DNA of 64,000 bases from Thermodesulfobacteriota bacterium (GTDB lineage Bacteria > Desulfobacterota > Desulfobulbia > Desulfobulbales > SURF-16). Positions 11,031-62,618 of the stretch are shown piece after piece. The notes under the pieces were generated by a model. That model saw nothing but the letters and a program-made list of their open reading frames with translations. It was not told the origin of the DNA and made no database searches. The first letter of the stretch is position 1; every line of letters starts with the position of its first letter. Made by a program: the position numbers and the translations under genes. The stretch is taken from assembly GCA_034723545.1 (NCBI GenBank), contig JAYEPA010000110.1, positions 1,242 to 65,241 of the forward strand, written 5' to 3'.

Positions 11031-11256
11031 ACGTATTTCTCCTGTAATGTAATAGTCTGTTATTTTAAAATTGTAAGATCTGAATTCTTGCGTACTTGTA
11101 CACTTTGTAAAGTAATTCAGCCACAATTTTTTCTTGTTATCTGGGAAGTTCCAAGTCAACGACGAAAAGCAGCGTGATGAGATTATTTTTGCCTGTCAAT
11201 TTCGTAACAGTTCACCAAGGGCTAAAATTTTTGTGGATACTCCTTATTGTAAAAGT

Positions 11257-11397
11257 TTACCAGTGCCCCAGATGTGTGCAGGTAAGCGAAACATAGCGAA
11301 GACTCCGAGCAGGCTGGCGAACTATAGTAAGCCTATGTGAGCTAGCCTGATCGTGCGCAGGTAGCGAGGGACGAGACTCCGGATGGGGTGCTGGTAA
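11257..11397. mobile_element. Palindromic MITE-like repeat (copy c)
   Basis: TTACCAGTGCCCCA ... TGGGGTGCTGGTAA inverted ends. The core CAGGCTGGCGAACTATAGTAAGCCTATGTGAGCTAGCCTGATCGTGCG is shared with the copies at 35090 and 62540. Confidence 0.55.
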
Positions 11398-16714: not shown

Positions 16715-16802
16715 GGAGAGGTGACCGAGAGGCCGAAGGTGCACGACTGGAAATCGTGTGTACGGCAACGTACCGAGGGTTCGAATCCCTCCTTCTCCGC
16801 CA
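16715..16802 (+). tRNA. tRNA-Ser (anticodon GGA)
   Basis: GGAGAGGTGACCGAGAGGCCGAAGGTGCACGACTGGAAATCGTGT...GGGTTCGAATCCCTCCTTCTCCGCCA. It has a class II long variable arm, the acceptor stem pairs, and CCA is encoded. Confidence 0.9.
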
Positions 16803-16818
16803 AATTTGATATCGGTTT

Positions 16819-16931
16819 GATAGCCAGGTCCCGCGCAACAGAGGCTCATGAACTCCGTCAGGTCCGGGAGGAAGCAGCGGTAATGAATCCCTTCTGTGTG
16901 CCGCGGGGGTGCCTGGCTATCATTTTTTTTA
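16819..16931 (+). ncRNA. ffs: Signal recognition particle RNA (small 4.5S type)
   Basis: Conserved GTCAGGTCCGGGAGGAAGCAGC domain IV motif. The 5' GATAGCCAGG pairs with the 3' CCTGGCTATC, and a T-run follows. Confidence 0.8.
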
Positions 16932-16955: not shown

Positions 16956-17061
16956 TTTTTTTCACCACAGAGCACACAGAGCACACAGAGAGCACTGAGA
17001 ATTTTTTTTATTATAATTAGTTGTCTCAGTGCGCTCAGTGTACTCTGTGGTTAGTTTTTAC
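16956..17061. repeat. CACAGAG-type hairpin repeat
   Basis: GTAAAAAGTC...CCACAGAGCACACAGAGCACACAGAGAGCACTGAG / CTCAGTGCGCTCAGTGTACTCTGTGG...TTTTTAC. Close homologue of the copy at 48350-48460. Confidence 0.7.
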
Positions 17062-23318: not shown

Positions 23319-23394
23319 GGAGCCACCTACCAGAGTCGAACTGGTGGCCTTTCGATTACGAATCGAATGCTCTACCAACTGAGCTAAGGTGGCT
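23319..23394 (-). tRNA. tRNA-Thr (anticodon CGT)
   Basis: The reverse complement reads GCCACCTTAGCTCAGTTGGTAGAGCATTCGATTCGTAATCGAAAGGCCACCAGTTCGACTCTGGTAGGTGGCTCCA. It folds as a cloverleaf, and CCA is encoded. Confidence 0.9.
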
Positions 23395-27930: not shown

Positions 27931-29946
27931 ATGTCCACCTTAAAACCACATCAGCCCCTTCTTAAATTTGGAATCGACACGGGCGGCACCTTTACCGATT
28001 TTTTCCTTCAGACCATTGAGGCCATTCAAACCTTCAAAATTTCCTCAACCCCGGATGATCCAGGTCGGGCCATTCTCAAAGGATTAAGCCATTTTTTTGC
28101 TGAACTTCCTCCTGAACTAGAGATCATTCACGGTACCACGGTGGGAACAAACAGCTTCCTGGAAAGAAAGGGGGCGAAAACCCTGCTCGTCACCACCCAT
28201 GGCTTTGAGGATATCCTCACCATCGGCCGGCAGAATCGTCCGAGTCTTTATGATCTGAACGTGGAACGTCCAGTAAAGATCATTCCTCGGGAAAATATTG
28301 TCGGGGTCAAAGAAAGGGTACTGTGGGACGGTACTGTTCAGACTCCCCTGGGCACAAGCGTCGGCAAAAGGCTGAGACGCATCTGCCGCTCTCTTGAGGT
28401 TGAGTCTGTTGCCGTCTGTTTCCTCCATTCCTATGCCAATCCGGATCATGAAAAGCGGATCAGGGACGAGCTTGCCCCATTGGGATTGCCCCTAACCCTG
28501 TCTTCTGAATTGTTGCCGGAATTCCGTGAATATGAACGATTGGTAACGACACTGATCAACGCTTATCTTGCGCCGGTGATCTCCTCCTACATTCATCGTT
28601 TAAACGATAATCTGACAACGGCCTCTCTTTCCGTGCAACAGTCAAACGGGTCTGTGCTGCCGGCTCGTTCCATTGAAAAAAGAGCCGTACATACGGTACT
28701 GTCCGGCCCGGCCGGTGGCGTTCAAGGTGCTTTTTACCTGGCCCGGGAAATGGCCATGGATAAAATCATCACCTTTGACATGGGGGGCACCTCCACGGAT
28801 GTGTCCCTCTGCGACGGCAGGCCGACCCTGACCCGTGAGCATCAAATAGACGGCTACCCGGTGGGGATTCAGGTTATGGACATTCATACCGTGGGCGCCG
28901 GCGGCGGTTCAGTCGCCAGGATTGATCAAGGCGGCCTGCTCCATGTCGGTCCTGATAGCGCGGGCGCTGATCCCGGACCGGTCTGTTACGGCAAGGGAAC
29001 GAATATTACGGTAACTGATGCCAATCTTTTCCTGGGCCGTCTGCTGCCCGACCGTTTCCTTGGAGGACGGATGGTCCTGGACTGTGAAGCCGTGGAGCGC
29101 TGCATGGCAGAACTGGCCGATCGCCTCGACATGAAAAAGACCCAGGCCGCTCTTGGGATCATCAGGATCGTCAATGTGGGCATGGCCAGGGCGATTCGGG
29201 CGGTCTCGGTGGAGCGGGGATATGATCCCAAGGATTTCACCCTGTTTTCCTTTGGCGGCGCATCCGGTCTGCACTGCTGTGCCCTGGCCGAGGAACTTGA
29301 AATTGACACAATTGTCGTACCGGCCAGGGCCGGTATCCTTTCCGCCCAGGGTATGGCCCAGGCTGATCCGGCTCTTGATTACAGCAAACCCCTTTTCCTG
29401 GCGGGAGACAAACTGCGGAGCAGGAAAATTGACGCAGCCTTTGCAGGTCTTATCAAAAAAGGCAGGGTCGAAATGGAGGATATTTGCGGCAGGGGCGATC
29501 TTGAAATTGAGCGTTTTCTTGATCTGCGCTATCAGGGACAGTCCTTTGAGCTCACCATTTCCTATGACAAGGATTTTAGAAAAAAATTCCATCAGCTTCA
29601 TAATCTCCATTTTGGCTACGACATGGAAGATGCTCCTCTTGAGCTTGTCTCAATTCGCTGCACCCTGCGGCTTAAAAGAGAAAAACAGCCTCTTCCCAGA
29701 CAGTTGCGGCAGGTTTCTTCCCCTCCGGAGATAGCGGGACAACGTACTGTTTTTTTTGGAGAGGGCAGGGCGCAGGTCAATCTTTACCTGAGAAAACGTT
29801 TGTCCTTCGGCCATTCCTTTTTCGGCCCCGCCCTGATTATTGATGACTATACTACAATCCTGGTTACACAAGATTTTCAGGTCCGAGTCGATTCTCTTGC
29901 CAATTTGATTATGGAAAGAAGATCAGCATCCAGCCGGCTGAGTTGA
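27931..29946 (+). CDS. Hydantoinase/oxoprolinase family protein (HyuA-type)
   Basis: KFGIDTGGTFTDF, VLSGPAGG, ITFDMGGTSTDV. 671 aa. No HyuB-type partner in the window. Confidence 0.85.
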   Translation: MSTLKPHQPLLKFGIDTGGTFTDFFLQTIEAIQTFKISSTPDDPGRAILKGLSHFFAELPPELEIIHGTTVGTNSFLERKGAKTLLVTTHGFEDILTIGRQNRPSLYDLNVERPVKIIPRENIVGVKERVLWDGTVQTPLGTSVGKRLRRICRSLEVESVAVCFLHSYANPDHEKRIRDELAPLGLPLTLSSELLPEFREYERLVTTLINAYLAPVISSYIHRLNDNLTTASLSVQQSNGSVLPARSIEKRAVHTVLSGPAGGVQGAFYLAREMAMDKIITFDMGGTSTDVSLCDGRPTLTREHQIDGYPVGIQVMDIHTVGAGGGSVARIDQGGLLHVGPDSAGADPGPVCYGKGTNITVTDANLFLGRLLPDRFLGGRMVLDCEAVERCMAELADRLDMKKTQAALGIIRIVNVGMARAIRAVSVERGYDPKDFTLFSFGGASGLHCCALAEELEIDTIVVPARAGILSAQGMAQADPALDYSKPLFLAGDKLRSRKIDAAFAGLIKKGRVEMEDICGRGDLEIERFLDLRYQGQSFELTISYDKDFRKKFHQLHNLHFGYDMEDAPLELVSIRCTLRLKREKQPLPRQLRQVSSPPEIAGQRTVFFGEGRAQVNLYLRKRLSFGHSFFGPALIIDDYTTILVTQDFQVRVDSLANLIMERRSASSRLS

Positions 29947-30119: not shown

Positions 30120-30986
30120 TTGACCCCTTATCAGGATTTACTGCAATTTATCTTTGCCGGGCTGACCAGCGGAGCTATCTATTCCCTTATCGCCCTTGGG
30201 TTCTGCGTGGTGCACAATACCATGGGCATTGTCAACTTTGTCCAGGTGGATTTTGTCACCCTGGGCGGCATGCTCCTGTTCAGCGGTCTTTTTTCTTTTG
30301 GCCTGCCCATGCCTCTTGCCTTGGCAGCGGCCATCATTGGCGTCACCCTCATTGCCATGCTGGTGGAGTGGATCGGCATCCGGCCTTCACGTTCCGACAA
30401 TCATCTGGTTCTTATTTTTTTGACCATTGGTATTTCCATCATCCTGCGGGGTTTGATGAAACTGATCTGGGGAAAAAACCGGATGGCGGTTCCGCCCCTG
30501 TCCGGCGAGGAGCCGATCCGGATTCTGGGGGCCACCATCATGCCCCAGGCCATCTGGATTTTGGTTCTTACAGCTCTTGCCATCGGCGGCCTTGTTTTGA
30601 TTTTCCGCCATTCTTCCATTGGTCTGGCCATGCGCGGCGTAGCGGCCAACCAGGAGGCAGCCGCTATTGTCGGTCTGCATACCGGCAGGGTCAAAGCCGT
30701 GAGTTTTGGCCTGGCCGGGGCTCTGGGCGGCTTGGCCGGGGTGCTGGTCACCCCCATCACGACCCTGAATTATGATGTGGGTGTGCTCCTTGGCCTTAAA
30801 GGTTTTGCCGGCGCCATTCTTGGCGGTTTTGGCTCATTTCCCGGCGCCATCCTCGGTGGTGTAAGTCTTGGCTTGATGGAATCCCTGACTGCCGGTTATC
30901 TGAGCAGCGCTTATAAGGATGTGGTTGCCTTTGTGGTTTTATTACTGATTCTTTTTGTCCGGCCCAAAGGGTTGTTGGGGAGATAG
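30120..30986 (+). CDS. livH: Branched-chain-amino-acid-type ABC transporter permease (LivH family)
   Basis: LLQFIFAGLTSGAIYSLIALGFCVVHNTMGIVNFVQVD is a typical LivH N-terminus. Polytopic, 288 aa, TTG start. Confidence 0.85.
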   Translation: MTPYQDLLQFIFAGLTSGAIYSLIALGFCVVHNTMGIVNFVQVDFVTLGGMLLFSGLFSFGLPMPLALAAAIIGVTLIAMLVEWIGIRPSRSDNHLVLIFLTIGISIILRGLMKLIWGKNRMAVPPLSGEEPIRILGATIMPQAIWILVLTALAIGGLVLIFRHSSIGLAMRGVAANQEAAAIVGLHTGRVKAVSFGLAGALGGLAGVLVTPITTLNYDVGVLLGLKGFAGAILGGFGSFPGAILGGVSLGLMESLTAGYLSSAYKDVVAFVVLLLILFVRPKGLLGR

Positions 30987-31098
30987 AAAGGGAAGGGGCA
31001 GAGGTGCAACAGACCTCGTAAGCTTTTTTGTTATTGATTAAAACCCCTTTACCGTCAAGGAATTTGAACAAAATTGGACAGTTGGTCTGGGTTAAAAG

Positions 31099-31171
31099 GT
31101 TCAGGGTTCAGGGTTGCTGATTCCCTCTAAACCTTGAACCTCTGAACCTTAAACCTTAAACGAGACTAAAT
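31099..31171. repeat. Hairpin repeat built from GGTTCAG words
   Basis: GGGTTAAAAGGTTCAGGGTTCAGGGTT ... AACCTTGAACCTCTGAACCTTAAACCTTAAAC, directly upstream of the iorA ATG. Confidence 0.5.
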
Positions 31172-33022
31172 ATGGCAGATAAAAAACAGAAACTACTCAT
31201 GGGAAACGAGGCCATGGGCCGCGGCCTGGTCGAGGCCGGCTGCACCATGGTCTCAGCCTATCCCGGCACCCCATCCTCAGAAATTCTCGGCAGCGTGGTC
31301 GCCAATATGGGGGATGCGGTTGAGCCGCTTCATGTTGAATGGTCGGTGAATGAGAAGGTTGCCTTTGAGGTGGCGCTGGCCAACAGCTACACAGGCAAAC
31401 GCTCGGCCGTGATCATGAAACAGGTGGGACTTAATGTGGCGGCTGATCCCTTTACCCGCTCCACCTATCTCGGCGTCAAGGGTGGCTTTGTGTTGATTGT
31501 CGCCGATGATCCCGGCCCGCACAGCTCACAGACCGAGCAGGACACCCGTCTTTTCGCCCTCTTTGCCAAGGCCCCGGTCTTTGACCCCAGTAGTCCGGCA
31601 GAGGCCAGGGAGATGATCACGGCTGCCTTTGAACTCTCCGAACAATACGAGATCCCGGTTATCCTGCGGCCCACCACCAGAATCTGTCATTCCCGCCAGA
31701 ACATCACCATGGGAAAACCGCTTCATCTGCAACGGCAGGCAGCTTTTGAGAAAAACCCCGGCCGCTGGGTGGCCACGCCTGCCTTTCTCACCGGCCTGCA
31801 CGGTGAATTAAATGAAAAACTTGGCGCCATCAGCGCGGAAGAAAGCCTCAAACCCTTTCCGGTCGTTAATGTCGATCCGGAGAAAGAGGGCAGGGCGCCC
31901 TGCATTATTGCCTCGGGCATGGCTTTTGCCAATGTATTTGATCTGCTCGATGAGCTGAATATGTTGAATCAGGTTCAGCTCTATCAGGTCAAGATGCCTT
32001 TTCCTCTCAACAGTGAATTCTGTCGGAAGATCAGGGAGATGGATGAAAAGGTTCTGGTTCTGGAAGAAACCGACACAGTAATTGAAATGCAACTGGGACT
32101 GGACGGAGCACAAGGTCGGCTTTCCGGTCACGTGCCGGGACAGGGTGAGTTGACGCCTGATGTAATCATGGCCCTTCTGCTCGATTTTCTTGATCTGCCC
32201 AAACCGGAGGCCGTGGAAAGCGGCCCGCCTGCACGGGGCCGAAGGCCTTCATTATGTCCGGGCTGTCCGCATCGCGCCTCATTTTTCGCCATCAAAAGAA
32301 CCTTTCCCAAAGGCATTTTTCCCAGCGATATCGGCTGCTATACACTGGGCATGAACCTGGGAGCCGTGGACACTTGTCACTGCATGGGGGCCTGTATCAG
32401 CATGGGGGCCGGTTTTTATCATGCCTATGCCCAGGACGGACCTGATTATCCCACCATTGTCGTTACCATCGGCGATTCCACTTTTTTCCATGCCGGTATC
32501 CCGGCCCTGGTTAATGCCGTAACCCAGAAAGCGCGGATCATCGTTACTATCCTGGACAACTCCACTACGGCCATGACCGGTCAGCAGCCCACTCCCCAGA
32601 GTGGTGTTCTGGCTGACGGCAGCCCCGGCAATCAGGCCTTTATACCTGATCTGGTCAAGGCCAGCGGTGTCCGTTTTTTGCGGGAATGTGATCCTTACGA
32701 TATCAATGGTTTTTCCGCCCTGCTTAAGGAAGCGGATCAATTCTGCCGCGGCGACCAGGGCGGCGTGGCCGTGCTCATTGCCAAACATCCCTGCCTGATG
32801 GATAAGAGCAATCAACTCAAGCAGGACGTGATTGAGATGGAGATCAGCGATGACTGCATTGGCTGCGGCATCTGCGTCAATCAATTTGAATGTCCGGCTA
32901 TCAGTTTGGATGAGGAGGAAGAACAGGCCGCAATCGATCCTGATATTTGCGTGGGCTGCGGCATCTGCGATCAGGTTTGTCCAACGGGTTCCATTGTCCG
33001 CAAGGGAGAAAATCAATCATGA
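31172..33022 (+). CDS. iorA: Indolepyruvate:ferredoxin oxidoreductase subunit alpha
   Basis: SAYPGTPSSEI N-terminus, TPP-binding region, C-terminal 2x[4Fe-4S] motifs CIGCGICVNQFECP and CVGCGICDQVCP. Confidence 0.9.
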   Translation: MADKKQKLLMGNEAMGRGLVEAGCTMVSAYPGTPSSEILGSVVANMGDAVEPLHVEWSVNEKVAFEVALANSYTGKRSAVIMKQVGLNVAADPFTRSTYLGVKGGFVLIVADDPGPHSSQTEQDTRLFALFAKAPVFDPSSPAEAREMITAAFELSEQYEIPVILRPTTRICHSRQNITMGKPLHLQRQAAFEKNPGRWVATPAFLTGLHGELNEKLGAISAEESLKPFPVVNVDPEKEGRAPCIIASGMAFANVFDLLDELNMLNQVQLYQVKMPFPLNSEFCRKIREMDEKVLVLEETDTVIEMQLGLDGAQGRLSGHVPGQGELTPDVIMALLLDFLDLPKPEAVESGPPARGRRPSLCPGCPHRASFFAIKRTFPKGIFPSDIGCYTLGMNLGAVDTCHCMGACISMGAGFYHAYAQDGPDYPTIVVTIGDSTFFHAGIPALVNAVTQKARIIVTILDNSTTAMTGQQPTPQSGVLADGSPGNQAFIPDLVKASGVRFLRECDPYDINGFSALLKEADQFCRGDQGGVAVLIAKHPCLMDKSNQLKQDVIEMEISDDCIGCGICVNQFECPAISLDEEEEQAAIDPDICVGCGICDQVCPTGSIVRKGENQS

Positions 33023-33519
33023 AACAGCAAATTATTGTAAGCGGCATAGGCGGGCAGGGGATTCTGTTTTTGACTCGGATCATCGCCGGCGCCGGCGTGA
33101 GCATGGGGCTTGAAATTTTGACATCCGAAACCCATGGTATGGCGCAACGCGGCGGCAGTGTTATTTCTTTTGTCAAGGCCGGCTCCTTTCGCAGTCCCTT
33201 GATTCGCCAGGGCCAGGGGGATATCGGCCTCTTTCTCCATGTTGACAATCTTGATGTTCACCAGGGACTGCTGCGGTCCGGGGCGGATCTTTTTGTCAAT
33301 ACCTCAACAACCGGACCCTACAGCAATATTGCCGCCACTGAACTGGCCAGGGAAATGGGCAGTGGTGTGTTGACAAACCTGATCATGCTTGGTTTTGCTG
33401 CGAAACATGACTCTCTGTTCTGCGGGCCGGAACAGCTGGAAATAGCCATCAGGGAGATATCCAGGGAGCGTTTTATCGACTCGAACCTGGCTGCCTTCCG
33501 TCGGGGGCTTGAGGGATAA
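33019..33519 (+). CDS. iorB: Indolepyruvate:ferredoxin oxidoreductase subunit beta
   Basis: MKQQIIVSGIGGQGILFLTRII. ATGA overlap with the iorA stop. The ORF-track start at 32947 lies inside iorA. Confidence 0.85.
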   Translation: MKQQIIVSGIGGQGILFLTRIIAGAGVSMGLEILTSETHGMAQRGGSVISFVKAGSFRSPLIRQGQGDIGLFLHVDNLDVHQGLLRSGADLFVNTSTTGPYSNIAATELAREMGSGVLTNLIMLGFAAKHDSLFCGPEQLEIAIREISRERFIDSNLAAFRRGLEG

Positions 33520-33528
33520 TTGGGATAA

Positions 33529-33596
33529 CCACAGAGCACACAGAGATCACAGAGATTTTTTACTTTTTTTCTCCGTGTGCTCTGTGATCTCTGTGG
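33529..33596. repeat. CACAGAG-type hairpin repeat
   Basis: CCACAGAGCACACAGAGATCACAGAG ... CTCCGTGTGCTCTGTGATCTCTGTGG. Confidence 0.65.
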
Positions 33597-33632
33597 TTAA
33601 AGATGTTTTTTGAAGGGCTTCACTGACAGATC

Positions 33633-34634
33633 ATGACCACCAGGGACAGGCTGACATACTTCATTTATCATCACCGGACCGGACTCTCCGTCTGGGCTCT
33701 GGTTCTGGTGCTTTCGCTGTTTCCCTTTTACTACGACAATCCCTATATTCTGGGAATCACCAACCTGGTAGCCATTAACGTTATAGTTGTTCTCGGCCTG
33801 AATCTTTTTATCGGCTATGCCGGCCAGATTTCCCTGGGCCATGCCGCTTTTTTCGGTCTGGGGGCCTACGGTTCGGCTATTTTTACCGTTTATTATCATA
33901 TCTGGCCCTGGCCGGCCATGGCTCTCTCGGCTTTACTGGTGGCCCTGACTGCTCTTATCATCGGCGTTCCTGTTCTTCGTCTCTCCGGCCATTACCTGGC
34001 CATGGCCACCCTGGGCTTCAATATCGTCATCTATACCGTTCTGGTGCAGTGGGACGAGGTCACCGGCGGGCCCAGCGGTTTTGCAGGAATCCCGCCACTT
34101 TCCATCGGCAATCTTGTTATTGATGATGAGTTCCGTTTCCATTATGTTGTCTGGGGTGTGGCTCTGGTTCTTTGCACCCTCAGCCTCAATCTGGTACGCA
34201 GCGGGGTAGGGCGCGGGCTGGCGGCCCTGGCGGTTGATGAAAGGGTTGCCGGTTCCCTGGGGGTCAACCCCGGCAGGGAAAAGGTGAAAGTCTTTATTCT
34301 ATCGGCGGTCTTTGCCTCCCTGGCAGGTAGTCTCTATGCCCACTGCTTCTGTTTCGTTAATCCCGACACCTTTGGCATTTTCGCTTCGGTGGATTTTGTC
34401 ATCATGGTGGTGGTGGGCGGCATGGGTTCCATCTGGGGAAGCCTTCTGGGTGCCGGTCTCCTCACTGTGCTGCCGGAATTTCTCGATACATTTGAAACCT
34501 TTAAAGATATTATTCATGGCATGATTCTCGTTTTGATCCTGCTGTTTCTGCCCCAGGGCTTTGTCACCGGACTGCTTGATCTCATCCGCACCAACCTGGC
34601 TCTCAGACGGCGGAAGAGTAAATATTCGGCTTAA
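33633..34634 (+). CDS. livM: Branched-chain-amino-acid-type ABC transporter permease (LivM family)
   Basis: Polytopic, 333 aa, GYAGQISLGHAAFFGLGAY signature. The last 5 codons plus the stop (SKYSA*) lie inside the repeat that starts at 34618. Confidence 0.85.
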   Translation: MTTRDRLTYFIYHHRTGLSVWALVLVLSLFPFYYDNPYILGITNLVAINVIVVLGLNLFIGYAGQISLGHAAFFGLGAYGSAIFTVYYHIWPWPAMALSALLVALTALIIGVPVLRLSGHYLAMATLGFNIVIYTVLVQWDEVTGGPSGFAGIPPLSIGNLVIDDEFRFHYVVWGVALVLCTLSLNLVRSGVGRGLAALAVDERVAGSLGVNPGREKVKVFILSAVFASLAGSLYAHCFCFVNPDTFGIFASVDFVIMVVVGGMGSIWGSLLGAGLLTVLPEFLDTFETFKDIIHGMILVLILLFLPQGFVTGLLDLIRTNLALRRRKSKYSA

Positions 34635-35171
34635 TGCAAGATTGTTACTAAAACCACTGAAATATTGTAACTATTCAGCATCCTAACCGAGGGTGAAAAT
34701 ACCGGCGTTTATTATAAAAGTGACAAAAGAATATATCGTCATTCCGGCATGTCCTTAGCCGGAATCCAGAAAGTAGCCATACACACCATCCTGGATCCCG
34801 GCTAAAAACATGCCGGGATGACGTGAGTGGCAATTTCAACTTATCGTGCTGATTCTGCGTTTTTTATACAGGCTACTCAGAATCTTGTTACTTAGAAGCG
34901 TATGTACACATGTTACGAAAAACTCGGTCTGTAACTGTTCAGATGTGCTTCATATTCGTTCATTTGGGCTTTGAAGCATACTGGTGCTATTCGAAAAGAC
35001 CAGGTAAGCGTAGACTCCGAAATGGACGAAGATGGAGTGCAGCTGAATAGTTACGAAATATTAATGTTTGACCAGTGCCCCATATTCGTACAGGCAGGCT
35101 GGCGAACTATAGTATAGTCCTATGTGAGTCAGCCTGATCGTGCGAAGATGGAGTGCTGGCCGAACATTTAC
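34618..35171. mobile_element. Composite MITE: outer GTAAATATTCGGC...GCCGAACATTTAC element carrying a nested insertion
   Basis: The outer sequence is collinear with the 172-bp copy at 62447-62618, except for a 388-bp insert. The flanking 8-mers are GCGGAAGA and GCAGAAAA (6/8 identical). Confidence 0.75.
34667..35054. mobile_element. Nested 388-bp element with perfect 13-bp TIR and an 8-bp TSD
   Basis: GTAACTATTCAGC (34667-34679) and GCTGAATAGTTAC (35042-35054). GAAATATT is present on both sides (34659-34666, 35055-35062). The element contains a further 87-bp palindrome at 34737-34823. Confidence 0.75.
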
Positions 35172-35179
35172 GCAGAAAA

Positions 35180-35944
35180 ATGTTAAAGCTTAATAATATC
35201 AGCAAGAGATTCGGCGGTCTGCCCGCCTTGAGCGAAGTTACATTTGATGTGGCGAAAGGCAAAATCACCGCCCTCATCGGTCCCAATGGCGCCGGCAAGT
35301 CCACCCTGATCAACTGTATCTCAGGCATCATTTCGGCGAATCACGGCAGCATTTTGTTTAAAAAGAAGGAGATCAGTGGTCTGCAGGCCCACGAGATTGC
35401 CAGGCTTGGCGTAGCCCGTACCTTCCAGAACCTGAGGGTTCTGCCCAGATTGTCCGTGCTGGAAAATGTCCTCTGCGGCCTTACCGTCAAAAGTGACCGC
35501 TCTTTTCTCAAGGCCATGCTGCGATTGCCTGCACTACGTCATCAGGAACGCTTTCTGCGCTTAAAGGCACTGGAGAGTTTGGATCTTTTCGGCTTGACGA
35601 AGAAGGCGGACTGGCCCATGGCGGCCTTGCCTTACGGTGACAAAAAAAAGGTGGAGATGGCCAGGGCCTTTGTCGCAAATCCCGGCATTGTTCTGCTTGA
35701 TGAGCCGGTGGCAGGTTTGAACTCCGAGGAGACGGCTCGAATCGGCGCGCTTGTCAAACAAATGCGGACAGCCGGCCACACCATGCTTCTCGTTGAGCAT
35801 GACATGGAGCTTGTCATGGATATTTCCGATCATGTCGTTGTTCTGGACAGCGGCCGCTGCATTGCCCAGGGTACTCCTGAAGAGATTCGCCATAATCCCC
35901 TGGTTCTTGAGGCCTATCTGGGTAAGATCGGCGCGGCGGCGTGA
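35180..35944 (+). CDS. livG: ABC transporter ATP-binding protein (LivG family)
   Basis: IGPNGAGKSTLINCISG, LPYGDKKKVEMARA, VLLDEPVAGL. ATG 35180 is chosen because the GTG at 35153 lies inside the repeat. Confidence 0.9.
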   Translation: MLKLNNISKRFGGLPALSEVTFDVAKGKITALIGPNGAGKSTLINCISGIISANHGSILFKKKEISGLQAHEIARLGVARTFQNLRVLPRLSVLENVLCGLTVKSDRSFLKAMLRLPALRHQERFLRLKALESLDLFGLTKKADWPMAALPYGDKKKVEMARAFVANPGIVLLDEPVAGLNSEETARIGALVKQMRTAGHTMLLVEHDMELVMDISDHVVVLDSGRCIAQGTPEEIRHNPLVLEAYLGKIGAAA

Positions 35945-35998
35945 GGATATCAGAAGTCAAAGGACAGAAATAAGCTTTAGCCAAACTTCAAAATTTAT

Positions 35999-36072
35999 CT
36001 CTCACAGAGGCACAGAGTTCACAGAGAAAAATTCTAATTCTGTGTTCTCTGTGTCTCTGCGCCTCTGTGAGA
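35999..36072. repeat. CACAGAG-type hairpin repeat
   Basis: TCTCACAGAGGCACAGAGTTCACAGAG ... TCTGTGTTCTCTGTGTCTCTGCGCCTCTGTGAGA. Confidence 0.65.
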
Positions 36073-36115
36073 AAATTAGAATCGGGTTCTTACTTTTTAA
36101 CGATTTTATCCGATC

Positions 36116-38206
36116 ATGCTAAAAATTCAAAACCTTCAAGTTCATTGCGGGGCAGCCCAGGCCCTGTTCGGCATTGATCTCGATGTCAGCCAGGGAGAAA
36201 CCGTGGCCCTGGTAGGAGCTAATGGCGCCGGCAAGAGCACTTTGCTGAAAGCTGTCATGGGACTGGTGCGTCCGAGCCGGGGTTCCATCTTCTTTGAAGG
36301 AACTGATGTAACCGGTTTTTCGGCCGTGCGCATGGTGCGGCAGGGGCTGGCCCTTTCACCCGAGGGCAGGCAACTTTTTGGCGAACTCACGGTTTTCGAA
36401 AATCTGCAACTCGGCGCTCTGGCCCTGAAACTGAACAAGTTAAAGGTCAAACAGGGGATGGAGGAAGTTTTCTCACGTTTCCCCAAACTTGCGGAGCGAA
36501 GAGATCAGCAGGCCGCCACCCTGTCCGGCGGCGAACAGCAGATGGTGGCCATGGGCAGGGCCCTGATGGCCCGGCCCCGGCTCCTTCTACTGGACGAACC
36601 CAGCCTGGGGCTTGCGCCGTTGATCACCGATGAGATTTTTGCTATCATCCGTCAACTTTCCCGTTCCGGTGTGACGATTTTACTGGTGGAGCAGAACGCG
36701 GCCCGGGCCCTGTCCGCCTCCACCTCCGCTTACCTGCTGGCCAATGGCCGGATTATCCATTCGGGCAACAGTGAAAAGCTGCTGGCCGACCCCAAACTTC
36801 GCCAGGCCTTTCTCGGGGCCGGAAGCGACAGCAGACCGGAGGCAAGCCGTCTTGGCGCCGCCGGTCTGACAAATATCAGATTGGAGAAACCCGATATGAC
36901 AAATCAGTCATTTATGCCCTCTTTCAAGAGTGAAGAGGAGCTGCACGCCCATCAGCTCAAGGGACTGCAATGGACGATTAATCATGTTTATCAAGGTTCG
37001 AGTTTTTACCGAACGCAACTGGAAAAGGTCGGAGTTCAACCGTCGGACATTCAATCGCTGGATGATCTGCAGAAACTGCCCTTTACCTCGGCCCATGACC
37101 TGCGCGACGGCTATCCTTTTCCCCTGCGATCCGTACCCTACGAGCAGATCACCCGTATCCATGCCAGCTCCGGCACCACGGGCAAGCGCAAGATCCTGGC
37201 TTACACCCAAAAAGACGTGGACGACTGGACCGACTTTTTTGCCCGCTCCTATGAAATGGCCGGTGTCACACCTCTGGACCGGATTCAGATTGCCGTGGGT
37301 TACGGCGTCTGGACAGCGGGCATGGGTTTCCAGCTCGGCTGTGAAAGAATTGGCGCCCTGGCCGTGCCAACCGGACCCGGCAACATTGATTTGCAGTGCC
37401 AGTTCATGCTTGATTTTCAATCCACTGTCTTCTGTTCCACTGCCTCCATGGCCCTGCTCATGGCCGAAGAAATTCATAAACGGGGGATTGCCGATAAAAT
37501 CAATATTAAAAAAATTATCTATGGTTCGGAACGTTCTTCCGTGTCCATGCGCCAGAAAATTTCCGAGCTTTTCGGCGGAGCGGAACTCTTTGACATTCCC
37601 GGCCTCACCGAGCTGTACGGTCCGGGAACCGGCATTGAATGCCCGAATCATGACTGCATTCATTACTGGGCTGACTATTACATCCTGGAAATTCTTGATC
37701 CAGAAACATTAAAACCGGTGGAACCAGGTGATTGGGGAGAGATGGTGGTCACCACACTCTGCAAGGAGGCGGCTCCCCTGATCCGTTACCGGACACGGGA
37801 TATCACCCGCATCATTCCCGGGCCCTGCACCTGCGGCTCCATCATGCCGCGTCATTCCCGAATCAGGGGGCGCAGCGATGATATGATGAAGTTTCGCGGC
37901 GTTAACATCTATCCCTCCAGCATTGACTCCATTCTTTCGGAAATTCCGGGCCTGGGTTCTGAATACCAGGTCCATCTTTCCAGGGATGACGCAAGCGGCC
38001 GCGACTCAATGAAACTTATGGTGGAGCAGGGGGAGCATTGTGACAAAAAGAGAAGTATTGAGCTTGCCAGGGAAACAGTGCATCAGATGAAGAAGAAATT
38101 GCTGGTCACGCCGGATGTTGAGGTGGTTAAATACGGATCTCTGCCGCGCTCCGAGCGCAAGAGTCAACGGGTTTTTGATACGCGTCTTCAAGATGATATT
38201 GTCTAA
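36116..38206 (+). CDS. Fusion: LivF-type ABC ATPase (aa 1-234) plus phenylacetate/arylacetate-CoA ligase (PaaK family, aa about 261-696)
   Basis: LVGANGAGKSTLLKAV, LSGGEQQMVAMGRAL, LLLDEPSLGLAP, ...AFLG. A 26-aa linker with no stop follows. PaaK-type motifs: IHASSGTTGKRKILAYT, GLTELYGPG, YRTRD. An internal ATG at 36896 has GGAGA 9 nt upstream. Confidence 0.85.
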   Translation: MLKIQNLQVHCGAAQALFGIDLDVSQGETVALVGANGAGKSTLLKAVMGLVRPSRGSIFFEGTDVTGFSAVRMVRQGLALSPEGRQLFGELTVFENLQLGALALKLNKLKVKQGMEEVFSRFPKLAERRDQQAATLSGGEQQMVAMGRALMARPRLLLLDEPSLGLAPLITDEIFAIIRQLSRSGVTILLVEQNAARALSASTSAYLLANGRIIHSGNSEKLLADPKLRQAFLGAGSDSRPEASRLGAAGLTNIRLEKPDMTNQSFMPSFKSEEELHAHQLKGLQWTINHVYQGSSFYRTQLEKVGVQPSDIQSLDDLQKLPFTSAHDLRDGYPFPLRSVPYEQITRIHASSGTTGKRKILAYTQKDVDDWTDFFARSYEMAGVTPLDRIQIAVGYGVWTAGMGFQLGCERIGALAVPTGPGNIDLQCQFMLDFQSTVFCSTASMALLMAEEIHKRGIADKINIKKIIYGSERSSVSMRQKISELFGGAELFDIPGLTELYGPGTGIECPNHDCIHYWADYYILEILDPETLKPVEPGDWGEMVVTTLCKEAAPLIRYRTRDITRIIPGPCTCGSIMPRHSRIRGRSDDMMKFRGVNIYPSSIDSILSEIPGLGSEYQVHLSRDDASGRDSMKLMVEQGEHCDKKRSIELARETVHQMKKKLLVTPDVEVVKYGSLPRSERKSQRVFDTRLQDDIV

Positions 38207-38212
38207 TCTAAA

Positions 38213-38347
38213 GTAAATGTTCAGCAGCACTCCATCTGCACTCGATCAGGCTGATTCACATAGGACTACTATAGTGTTCCAGCCTGCTCGGAGTCTTCGC
38301 TACGTTTCGCTTACCTGCGCACATCTGGAGCACTGCTGAACATTTAC
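38213..38347. mobile_element. Palindromic MITE-like repeat (copy e)
   Basis: GTAAATGTTCAGCAGCACTCCA ... TGGAGCACTGCTGAACATTTAC are near-perfect inverted ends. The core is shared with the other copies. Confidence 0.7.
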
Positions 38348-38599
38348 AATCCGAGTTTTTCGTGACATTTTTCACATACGCTGAACAGAATAGCCATGCC
38401 CTTTACTCACAAATTTAAGCACACAAGCAAACATTAATTCCTGTATAAAAGCACTCGGGGATGACGATAGTGACGAAAAAGCCCATCTTATGACTTATGG
38501 TAAAGGGTAGGGCTAGCCCCTTTATTTGCAGAAACAAGTCCATCGTGTTAAAAAAAACAGCACTTGCCACCCAAAAACACTTTTAAGGAGATGAGAAAA

Positions 38600-39769
38600 A
38601 TGAAAAAAATCAAATTTTACTTTGCCATTATGGCGGCTCTGTGCATGACATTGCCCACTGCTTCCGCCCTGGCGATGGAGAACATCAAAATAGGGGCCTT
38701 CTTTGACCTCTCCGGCCCGGCCAGTTTTATCGGGACGCCCACCAGGCTTGTGGCTGAAATGGTCGTGGATCAAATTAACAGAAATGGCGGCGTTAACGGC
38801 AAGGAAATCATATTAATTATCGGCGACACCGAAGGCAATCCGGCCAAGGCGGCCACTATTGCCAAAAAATTTATCTATAAAGACAAGGTTGCGGCCATTG
38901 TCGGACCCACCCGAACCGGTACCGGAATGAATGTAAAGAGCATTGTCGAGAAGGCCGGCATGCCCACATTCATGACCGTGGGCGGCGATCCGGTGATCAT
39001 GGGCGGTAAATTCGGCCCTTACTCCTACATTTTTAAATCCCCCCAGCGTTCTTCTGTTGCGGTTAAAAGGCTGTACAGCTATCTGCAGGAAAAAGGATTG
39101 ACGAAAATTGCGCTGCTCACCGCCGCTGATGGTTTTGGTAAGGACGGCGGCCGCTGGCTCGACAAACTGGCCGGGGATTACGGCTTGACCGTTGTCGCAA
39201 AAGAATCATTCGGTCCCAAGGACACCGATATGACGGCCCAGCTCACCAACCTCAAAAACAGTCAGCCACAAGCCATTGTCTGCTGGACCATTGGTGCGGC
39301 CGGTTCCATCGTGGCCAAGAACAAGGTTCAGCTCGGCATAACCGCGCCTCTTTTTCAATGTCATGGCCTGCCTGATCCAAAATACATTGAACTGGCCGGC
39401 AAGGCTTCCGAGGGCGACCGCATGCCCGCCACCAAGCTGATGGTGGCTGACCAGCTGTCGGATGATGATCCCCAGAAAAAGGTGATTAATGAATTTGTTC
39501 ATCTTTACCGGGATGTCTATCATTTTGATGAAAAATTTCCCATCAATACCCATTCCGGCTATGCCTGGGACGCAATCAGCATTGTGGCCGAGGCCATGAA
39601 AAAAGTCGGCACCGAACCCAAGGCTCTGCGCGTGGCTATTGAAGAGACGAAAGGCTATGTCGGCATCTCCGGTATCTATAACATCACCCCGGAAGATCAC
39701 AACGGCCTGGATGTAGATTCCATGGTTATTGTTCAAGTGAAAGACGGAAAATTCACCATGGCCGACTAA
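38600..39769 (+). CDS. ABC transporter periplasmic substrate-binding protein (LivJ/K-type fold)
   Basis: Signal peptide MKKIKFYFAIMAALCMTLPTASALA, IKIGAFFDLSGPASFIGTP. AAGGAG lies 9 nt upstream of ATG 38600. Confidence 0.85.
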   Translation: MKKIKFYFAIMAALCMTLPTASALAMENIKIGAFFDLSGPASFIGTPTRLVAEMVVDQINRNGGVNGKEIILIIGDTEGNPAKAATIAKKFIYKDKVAAIVGPTRTGTGMNVKSIVEKAGMPTFMTVGGDPVIMGGKFGPYSYIFKSPQRSSVAVKRLYSYLQEKGLTKIALLTAADGFGKDGGRWLDKLAGDYGLTVVAKESFGPKDTDMTAQLTNLKNSQPQAIVCWTIGAAGSIVAKNKVQLGITAPLFQCHGLPDPKYIELAGKASEGDRMPATKLMVADQLSDDDPQKKVINEFVHLYRDVYHFDEKFPINTHSGYAWDAISIVAEAMKKVGTEPKALRVAIEETKGYVGISGIYNITPEDHNGLDVDSMVIVQVKDGKFTMAD

Positions 39770-48349: not shown

Positions 48350-48460
48350 CGTAAAAAGTCTTCACCACAGAGCATACAGAGAGCGCAGAGAAATTCTTTT
48401 TACTACAACTAGTTGTCTCTGTGAGCTCTGTGTGCTCTGTGGTTATTTTTTAGTTTTTAC
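48350..48460. repeat. CACAGAG-type hairpin repeat
   Basis: GTAAAAAGTCTTCACCACAGAGCATACAGAGAGCGCAGAG ... CTCTGTGAGCTCTGTGTGCTCTGTGG...TTTTTAC. Close homologue of 16956-17061. Confidence 0.7.
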
Positions 48461-62395: not shown

Positions 62396-62446
62396 TTAAG
62401 ATCAGAAGACAGATTGAGCATAGTAGTCTAACTTCATTAACAGATA

Positions 62447-62618
62447 GTAAATATTCGGCTTAATGTAAAATTGTTACTAAAACCACCGAAATGTAAATAT
62501 TTGATCAGTGCCCTATATTCGTACCCTGAAGGGCATAAATTCCAGCAGGCTGGCGAACTATAGTAGTCTTGTGAGTCAGCCTGATCGTGCGAAGATGGGG
62601 TGCTGGCCGAATATTTAC
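62447..62618. mobile_element. 172-bp MITE with a perfect 13-bp TIR and a perfect 8-bp TSD
   Basis: GTAAATATTCGGC (62447-62459) and GCCGAATATTTAC (62606-62618). AACAGATA on both sides (62439-62446 and 62619-62626). Confidence 0.8.

Follow-up and report, generated by a model that had tools for sequence, protein, structure and literature searches.

ATP-binding cassette (ABC) importers are usually viewed as releasing free solute to the cytoplasm, with metabolism following as a separate step. The present report concerns a module of seven genes in a 64,000-nt stretch of DNA (hereafter the window) from a Thermodesulfobacteriota bacterium (GenBank assembly GCA_034723545.1, contig JAYEPA010000110.1), in which a LivF-type transporter ATPase is continuous with a complete aryl-acid coenzyme A (CoA) ligase, and the genes for indolepyruvate:ferredoxin oxidoreductase (IOR) lie between those of the two permeases. 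We propose, with a probability of roughly one half, that the module scavenges aryl acids, which would be imported, trapped as CoA thioesters at the transporter and reductively carboxylated by IOR towards aromatic amino acids. Several elements of such a system are already known, namely aromatic-acid ABC importers encoded beside CoA ligases, the combination of IOR with an aryl-acid ligase, and vectorial acylation via FadD/FATP. On the other hand, no description of a fusion between an ABC-importer ATPase and a CoA ligase was found in the literature searched, in agreement with the first-pass annotation of this DNA, and the same literature likewise yielded no description of a linker conserved to the grade of a motif or of IOR genes between permease genes.

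A route to aromatic amino acids by IOR and an aryl-acid ligase was reportedly found in rumen bacteria by Allison in the 1960s, and Porat et al. are said to have reported in 2004 that IOR and an aryl-acid-activating ligase convert aryl acids to aromatic amino acids in Methanococcus maripaludis. The same pair occurs in the BT_0428-BT_0430 cluster of Bacteroides thetaiotaomicron, which works in the oxidative direction and yields aryl acids, and it is BT_0428 that the ligase domain described here most resembles. Unlike the module in the window, none of these IOR-ligase systems (M. maripaludis, rumen bacteria, B. thetaiotaomicron) has a dedicated fused or interleaved transporter.

The CouPSTU-like HAAT importers of Rhodopseudomonas palustris are encoded beside CoA ligases (PMC3610893). 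They share with the module a Peripla_BP_6 protein, LivHMGF-type subunits and a genetic tie between aromatic-acid uptake and CoA activation, but their ligase is a separate protein serving a degradative pathway, whereas the ligase of the module is fused to LivF and its partner IOR is encoded between the permease genes. In vectorial acylation (Escherichia coli FadL/FadD and the eukaryotic FATPs, TCDB 4.C), uptake of a carboxylic acid is also followed by prompt CoA trapping; there, however, esterification gives the directionality and no ABC ATPase takes part, whereas the module has an ATP motor to which the ligase would add trapping or channelling. The peroxisomal ABCD transporters (Comatose/ABCD1) likewise tie an ABC transport cycle to acyl-CoA chemistry on the trans side, but they are eukaryotic, have an exporter-type fold, cleave CoA esters with an intrinsic thioesterase and rely on a separate synthetase (PMC6642094). 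Extra C-terminal domains on importer ATPases are familiar from MalK, MetN, ModC and OpuA; these are small ligand-binding modules, whereas the part added in the fusion is an entire enzyme of 436 aa in which every catalytic motif is present.

The module genes all lie on the forward strand in the order livH, iorA, iorB, livM, livG, livF::ligase and binding-protein gene, and the calls of open reading frames (ORFs) and domains bear out this order as first annotated (coordinates are positions in the window). The sixth gene is a single ORF of 696 aa (36116-38206). Its LivF-type ATPase domain (aa 1-234; 36116-36817) matches Pfam ABC_tran at aa 19-163 (3.9e-32) and NF008626 over the full length, aligns to PDB 1ji0 over aa 2-235, and has the complete motifs GANGAGKST, LSGGEQQ and LLLLDEPS. 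As the first-pass annotation stated, no stop codon follows the ...AFLG that ends this domain (aa 234); the frame reads through 26 residues (aa 235-260; 36818-36895) into a complete PaaK/BT_0428-type aryl-acid CoA ligase domain (aa 261-696; 36896-38206 including the stop codon). The latter comprises AMP-binding (aa 336-546) and AMP-binding_C_2 (aa 595-690) with a complete set of motifs: SSGTTGKRK (aa 351-359), YGPG, YRTRD (aa 558-562), RSDD and the C-terminal Lys of ERKSQRV. The ligase follows the C-terminus of the ATPase, after aa 234, where regulated ABC ATPases carry their extra domain.

Homologues were searched for in 5.8 billion proteins clustered at 90% identity. At least 120 clusters contain full-length homologues of the fusion (74-97% identity, 100% query cover, both domains in each), from Desulfolithobacter, Desulfuromonas, Pelobacter seleniigenes, Malonomonas, Geoalkalibacter and many metagenome-assembled genomes, with complete genomes included; the nearest named relative of the window protein is that of Desulfolithobacter (80% identity), and an exact-match look-up returned no record of the protein itself. 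At 50% clustering the family collapses to a single representative (P0121). These data rule out an assembly error or pseudogene. An artefact confined to this genome, be it a fault of sequencing or assembly or a stop codon lost recently as in a pseudogene, has a negligible probability: the operon spacers of the window do carry repeat insertions, but nothing was found in its favour, the same fusion and linker recur in all these clusters and in complete genomes, and an orthologue has been detected as protein. The LivF::ligase fusion is genuine and under strong selection. The IMG automatic names for such proteins read 'PaaK-like adenylate-forming protein/ABC-type ... ATPase component'. A search with the short junction peptide via a word index gave two candidates and is too uninformative for counting fusions.

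Related architectures were also encountered. P0125 (761 aa, 38% identity) represents another, distantly related fusion of LivF to a ligase, whose linker differs. P0129 (364 aa) joins a LivF ATPase to only the small C-terminal ligase subdomain AMP-binding_C_2; it is a fusion that has decayed or else a short form in its own right. P0240 (1017 aa) and P0267 (1119 aa) carry an N-terminal MFS_1 domain and two LivG/LivF-type ATPase domains in one chain, an odd architecture in which a secondary-transporter fold is joined to ABC motors.

The 26 residues between the domains, first described as a linker, are not a passive spacer and belong to the best conserved stretches of the protein. Over 121 sequences (the window protein and 120 homologues), positions conserved at 90% or more make up 77% of the linker, 57% of the LivF part and 62% of the ligase part. 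Among all 17-aa windows of the protein, the linker core ASRLGAAGLTNIRLEKP (aa 243-259) comes fourth in conservation and ranks alongside the Walker B/D-loop, the ABC signature and the adenylation motifs A3, A5, A7 and A8. In the DNA of seven loci, nearly every linker codon varies synonymously (Ser as AGC/TCC/TCG; Arg as CGC/CGG/CGT or AGA/CGC; Leu and Pro each with four codons). The combination of synonymous codon variation with a conserved peptide shows that selection acts on the linker peptide, and therefore that the read-through product is the functional, selected one. An RNA element or a Shine-Dalgarno sequence as the main cause of the conservation was rejected because the codons vary synonymously and the GGAG is lost in three of nine loci with the peptide unchanged; an Rfam search of the linker region gave no match. 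The closest stand-alone ligase, P0124 (52% identity), starts at about residue 259 of the fusion, implying that the linker is new sequence that comes from neither parent. It is probably a docking or coupling peptide, whose partner would be LivG, one of the permease loops, IOR or another ligase; alternatively, it would pass conformational state between the ATPase and the ligase.

The latter possibility borders on a regulatory explanation, according to which the ligand state of the ligase domain (acyl-AMP, CoA or acyl-CoA) gates the ATPase via the linker, so that import halts when CoA or ATP is low or when product builds up (trans-inhibition). The C-terminus of the ATPase is, as is generally known, the place of the regulatory domains of ABC proteins, the linker shows the conservation of a functional element, and ANL ligases are well known to rotate a domain widely during catalysis. 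However, the invariance of all catalytic motifs of the ligase indicates that catalysis is retained, and AlphaFold2 modelling gives the proposal no structural support. Gating as the primary role is distinctly unlikely, although it would be compatible with aryl-acid scavenging.

The conservation of the linker also bears on whether the fusion is simply a device for co-expression, in which loss of the livF stop codon fixed 1:1 expression without any channelling and the working enzyme is a free ligase initiated within the ORF. The first-pass annotation had pointed to an internal ATG that could yield free ligase. This ATG (36896-36898, codon 261) is indeed present, with GGAGA (36883-36887) 8 nt ahead of it; initiation there is possible and finds little backing. 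Codon 261 is ATG in seven of nine loci and TTG in the other two; GGAG precedes it in six and weakens to GGAA or GAGA in three. Met261 is conserved at 90% or more amid variable neighbours, and codon 261 is the former start codon of the ligase. These features favour the co-expression explanation, as do the Rhodobacterales, in which livF and a PaaK-like ligase gene are adjacent and separate. On the other hand, a neutral read-through linker would drift, whereas the actual one is conserved like Walker B and the adenylation motifs, beneath synonymously varying codons; the Shine-Dalgarno match is gone in the three loci with the amino acids unchanged, and in the window the pairing with the anti-Shine-Dalgarno sequence upstream of codon 261 does no better than rank among the best 9% of the in-frame positions in this gene. 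A fusion serving co-expression only is therefore rather improbable.

The Rhodobacterales operon has the order livG-livH-livM-X-livF-ligase and lacks IOR, which indicates that the pairing of importer and ligase is wider than the fusion itself; adjacent unfused livF and ligase genes are likely to represent the ancestral state. Distant fusions in Rhodobacterales, suggested by tblastn matches over residues 1-688 at ~30% identity, were discarded, as translation shows a stop codon after a 264-aa LivF and then a separate ligase gene. This 264-aa LivF ends in a conserved basic tail, ...GMSDEGRKSFRDVRSYRRRKRWLS, just ahead of the PaaK-like ligase gene (L008-L010, L012, L013, L021-L023, L026 and L079), and a gene of ~1.9 kb lies between livM and livF.

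Five other loci share exactly the order livH-iorA-iorB-livM-livG-livF::ligase, namely L001, L002, L004, L081 (the complete genome of Desulfolithobacter dissulfuricans) and L082 (from the genome of P. seleniigenes), so that the interleaving of liv and ior genes, like the fusion, is found well beyond the window. The binding-protein gene comes next in four of the five and is replaced by a TetR gene in L082. In L081, neighbouring module genes mostly overlap or abut. The genes flanking the module are unrelated among the loci; together with the identical order, this makes the module a conserved, self-contained unit, which belongs to anaerobic Desulfobacterota and Desulfuromonadota.

IorA (31172-33022, 616 aa) combines POR_N, TPP_enzyme_C and Fer4 domains and carries a 2x[4Fe-4S] segment at its C-terminus, and IorB (33019-33519, 166 aa), whose start codon overlaps the iorA stop codon (ATGA), has a POR domain of the gamma type; this is the domain composition expected of the alpha and beta subunits of IOR. 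IorB scores just under the cut-off of NF004916 (197.5 bits, cut-off 227). A link between the two enzymes is also visible elsewhere: P0147 (635 aa) is a fusion of IorB to a PaaK-like ligase, encoded directly after iorA on four contigs from several samples, and is a Rosetta-stone link between the ligase and IOR. The functional pairing of ligase and IOR that had been put forward for the window gains from both this fusion and the co-encoding in the module.

The importer has the composition of the HAAT family (TC 3.A.1.4), with two BPD_transp_2 (PF02653) permeases, LivG- and LivF-type ATPases and a Peripla_BP_6 protein with a signal peptide. The livH-type permease (30120-30986, 288 aa, TTG start; BPD_transp_2 4.5e-34) is 69-78% identical to the product of the first module gene in L001, L002, L004 and L082, and its best NCBIfam match is LivH, under the equivalog cut-off. 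The livM-type permease (33633-34634, 333 aa; BPD_transp_2 2.5e-42) shares 64-70% identity with the module livM products of relatives. The livG-type ATPase (35180-35944) has 254 aa from ATG 35180 and contains ABC_tran and BCA_ABC_TP_C (PF12399); its N-terminus MLKLNN agrees with that of relatives. The LIV-I equivalogs are all missed (bits against cut-off: LivH 145/379, LivM 182/366, LivG 251/362, LivF 244/441, LivJ/K 50/477). By these profile scores, the importer belongs to the HAAT family and is not a LIV-I orthologue.

The periplasmic binding protein (389 aa; 38600-39769, in an ORF of 38564-39769) likely starts at ATG 38600, downstream of AAGGAG. Its signal peptide is MKKIKFYFAIMAALCMTLPTASALA, the hydrophobic N-terminal leader ending in ASALA, and it matches Peripla_BP_6 (PF13458) with 9.5e-52. 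It is 69-79% identical to its module counterpart in relatives. Among solved structures it comes closest to aromatic-acid binders of the Rhodopseudomonas type, 3uk0, 3sg0, 3tx6 and 4jb0 (CouP), with E ~1e-31; amino-acid binders are weaker (E 1e-14 to 1e-23), and proteins of the E. coli LivJ/K type were not retrieved in this search of solved structures. CouP holds the carboxylate of ferulate via Thr102, Arg197 and Ser222 (PMC3610893), of which Thr102 is kept as T118. The comparison suggests that the ligand is an aromatic carboxylic acid, and the initial idea of an importer for cargo of the arylacetate type is strengthened accordingly.

The ligase domain aligns end to end with 4r1l (BT_0428 of B. 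thetaiotaomicron, 349 bits), 2y4o (317 bits) and also 2y27, the order of similarity being BT_0428, then Burkholderia PaaK2 and PaaK1. It has the PaaK-type ANL fold with the full motif set, invariant across the fusion family, and the aromatic pocket positions are kept (GYGVWTAGMGF). Its earlier designation as a PaaK-type arylacetate ligase holds as regards family and completeness; it is best described as a predicted PaaK-family aryl-acid ligase, for which specificity towards phenylacetate is unproven. The residues C509, H512, C514, H516, C571 and C573 (encoded at 37640-37663 and 37826-37834) are invariant in the fusion family, and the CxC motif is common to BT_0428 and missing from the aerobic Burkholderia PaaK2. 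In the ligase of anaerobes, these Cys and His residues may make up a site that binds metal or is sensitive to redox state.

Proteomic data are available for D. dissulfuricans, in which mass spectrometry revealed the orthologues of the fusion (GF1_31050), the binding protein (GF1_31040) and IorA (GF1_31090) in both growth conditions (PMC9751629). GF1_31050 has 703 aa and is annotated as hypothetical; a tryptic peptide to be expected from it, AFLGAGSEDRPEASR, would span the end of LivF and the linker, and IGAAGLTNIR would fall inside the linker. The organism is a strict chemolithoautotroph that showed no growth on any tested organic carbon source, and it expresses a second, unfused iorA-iorB-paaK set (GF1_03260-03280) together with a further PaaK, GF1_03350 (PMC9751629). 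The presence of the unfused set implies that the transporter-linked set is a specialised paralogue, and an expressed module in an autotroph fits biosynthetic scavenging better than growth on aromatics.

According to the scavenging hypothesis, the binding protein would capture with high affinity a scarce aromatic carboxylic acid, such as phenylacetate, 4-hydroxyphenylacetate, indole-3-acetate or a close relative, and the importer would bring it inward at the expense of ATP. On the cytoplasmic side, the tethered ligase would at once convert this membrane-permeant weak acid to a membrane-impermeant CoA thioester (metabolic trapping or channelling). IOR, with reduced ferredoxin and CO2, would then convert the aryl-acetyl-CoA to an arylpyruvate, from which housekeeping aminotransferases would form the aromatic amino acid. 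Directly established are the content and order of the genes, the fusion with its conservation, selection on the linker peptide and expression of the orthologues; the kind of substrate, the reductive course of the pathway, its channelling and the part played by the linker are drawn from family knowledge and context. The first-pass annotation spoke of vectorial acylation, a fair analogy; in the strict sense of the term, esterification drives transport, which an ATP-driven importer does not need, and the proposal is more safely described as metabolic trapping or channelling.

The opposite direction has also to be considered. In a catabolic, oxidative module, aromatic amino acids or arylpyruvates would be imported and transaminated, and IOR would decarboxylate them oxidatively, giving aryl-acetyl-CoA and reduced ferredoxin; the ligase would run in reverse (aryl-acetyl-CoA + AMP + PPi to acid + ATP) or supply aryl acids imported alongside to a CoA-dependent degradation. 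Amino acids are the classical cargo of HAAT transporters, the best NCBIfam names of the subunits are LivHMGF, and IOR is generally known to be oxidative in B. thetaiotaomicron and in fermenting archaea. D. dissulfuricans, moreover, can use casamino acids as an energy source (PMC9751629), which would be compatible with an oxidative role of IOR. However, the binding protein is closer to aromatic-acid than to amino-acid binders, and at none of the loci examined does an aminotransferase, phosphotransacylase/kinase or benzoyl-CoA pathway gene lie in or beside the module. The hosts include the strict autotroph mentioned above, and a ligase tethered to the importer would make little sense if the cargo were not its substrate. 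The catabolic explanation is accordingly considered unlikely.

Besides the use of casamino acids, several observations count against aryl-acid scavenging. D. dissulfuricans expresses prephenate dehydratase (PMC9751629), which together with the second iorAB-paaK set implies that the module does not compensate for an auxotrophy. IorA falls just under the cut-off of the IOR_alpha model TIGR03336 (630 bits, cut-off 650.9), and the ligase is well under that of the PaaK equivalog TIGR02155 (392 bits, cut-off 646.3); PaaK-family members with other specificities, for example towards isophthalate, have been described (PMC9516798). In the binding protein, Arg197 and Ser222 of CouP are replaced by P218 and I243, so that only one of the three carboxylate ligands is kept, and visual inspection of the alignment indicates a low identity to the solved binders. 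The AlphaFold2 model of the whole fusion folds both domains (predicted local distance difference test, pLDDT, mostly 70-93 for LivF) and gives neither a confident arrangement of the two domains (predicted template modelling score 0.49) nor docking information. The linker has pLDDT <50, a value that would fit ordering induced by a partner and a shallow alignment alike and does not discriminate between them.

A more far-reaching version of the scavenging hypothesis would place the three steps in a membrane-anchored transport metabolon, in which the linker recruits IOR or a second ligase, or couples the domain rotation of the ligase to the LivG/LivF cycle, and import, thioesterification and reductive carboxylation are obligatorily coupled. 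We regard this version as improbable; if true, it would be a genuine group-translocating ABC importer, a mechanism not known for the superfamily.

In contrast to the compact operons of relatives, the module in the window has repeat insertions in its spacers; all its reading frames are intact. A dispersed repeat resembling a miniature inverted-repeat transposable element (MITE) occupies the livM/livG junction (34617-35171, no strand assigned), so that livM takes its last five codons and its stop codon from the repeat; in relatives, livM and livG overlap without such an insert. The ends of this repeat recur at 62446-62501 and 62487-62618, within a short MITE-like copy of ~173 bp at 62446-62618, and parts of it at 11246-11360 and, inverted, at 38213-38382. 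The inverted partial copy (no strand assigned) lies in the spacer between the ligase and binding-protein genes and is matched by blastn to 35094-35171, 34897-34955, 11246-11360 and 62544-62618. A second type of repeat, a hairpin palindrome of the CACAGAG type resembling repetitive extragenic palindromic elements, is found in the iorB/livM spacer (33525-33601) and the livG/livF spacer (36000-36072, 77% identical over 78 nt to its reverse complement), both without an assigned strand, with further copies at 16960-17053 and 48364-48446; the tightly packed operons of L081 and L082 lack it. A terminator scan found no terminator-like site in the repeat-bearing spacers, its overall frequency of hits being no higher than in shuffled sequence. 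In one clade of relatives (L004, 8643-9984, and L003, 581-1906), an ORF resembling an IS200/Y1 transposase (weak Pfam match) and a further ORF of ~200 aa are inserted directly upstream of livF::ligase. The intergenic sites of the module operon seem to be prone to insertion of mobile elements.

Upstream of the module, a lone hydantoinase_A-family gene (27931-29946) lies on the same strand, 174 bp ahead of livH. It was ruled out as a member of the module, since the flanking genes differ in relatives and it is not kept in L081 or L082. A hydantoinase_B gene stands upstream of iorA in an unrelated iorA-iorB::ligase locus (L084, 48-1787), which may be a coincidence. The only Rfam matches in the window are a tRNA followed by a small signal recognition particle RNA (16715-16921, forward strand) and a tRNA at 23321-23393 on the reverse strand.

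The fusion shows that a metabolic enzyme can be held covalently on the motor subunit of an ABC importer in a natural, widespread and strongly conserved arrangement, with the genes for the next enzyme enclosed by those of the transporter. Should the coupling be physical, the module would offer a tractable bacterial model of channelling from transport to metabolism, and would show how weak acids prone to leak back over membranes can be scavenged at trace levels. If aryl-acid scavenging proves true, abundant sediment anaerobes, strict autotrophs included, would recycle fermentation-derived aryl acids into aromatic amino acids, which would bear on how carbon flow and isotope-labelling studies in anoxic sediments are read.

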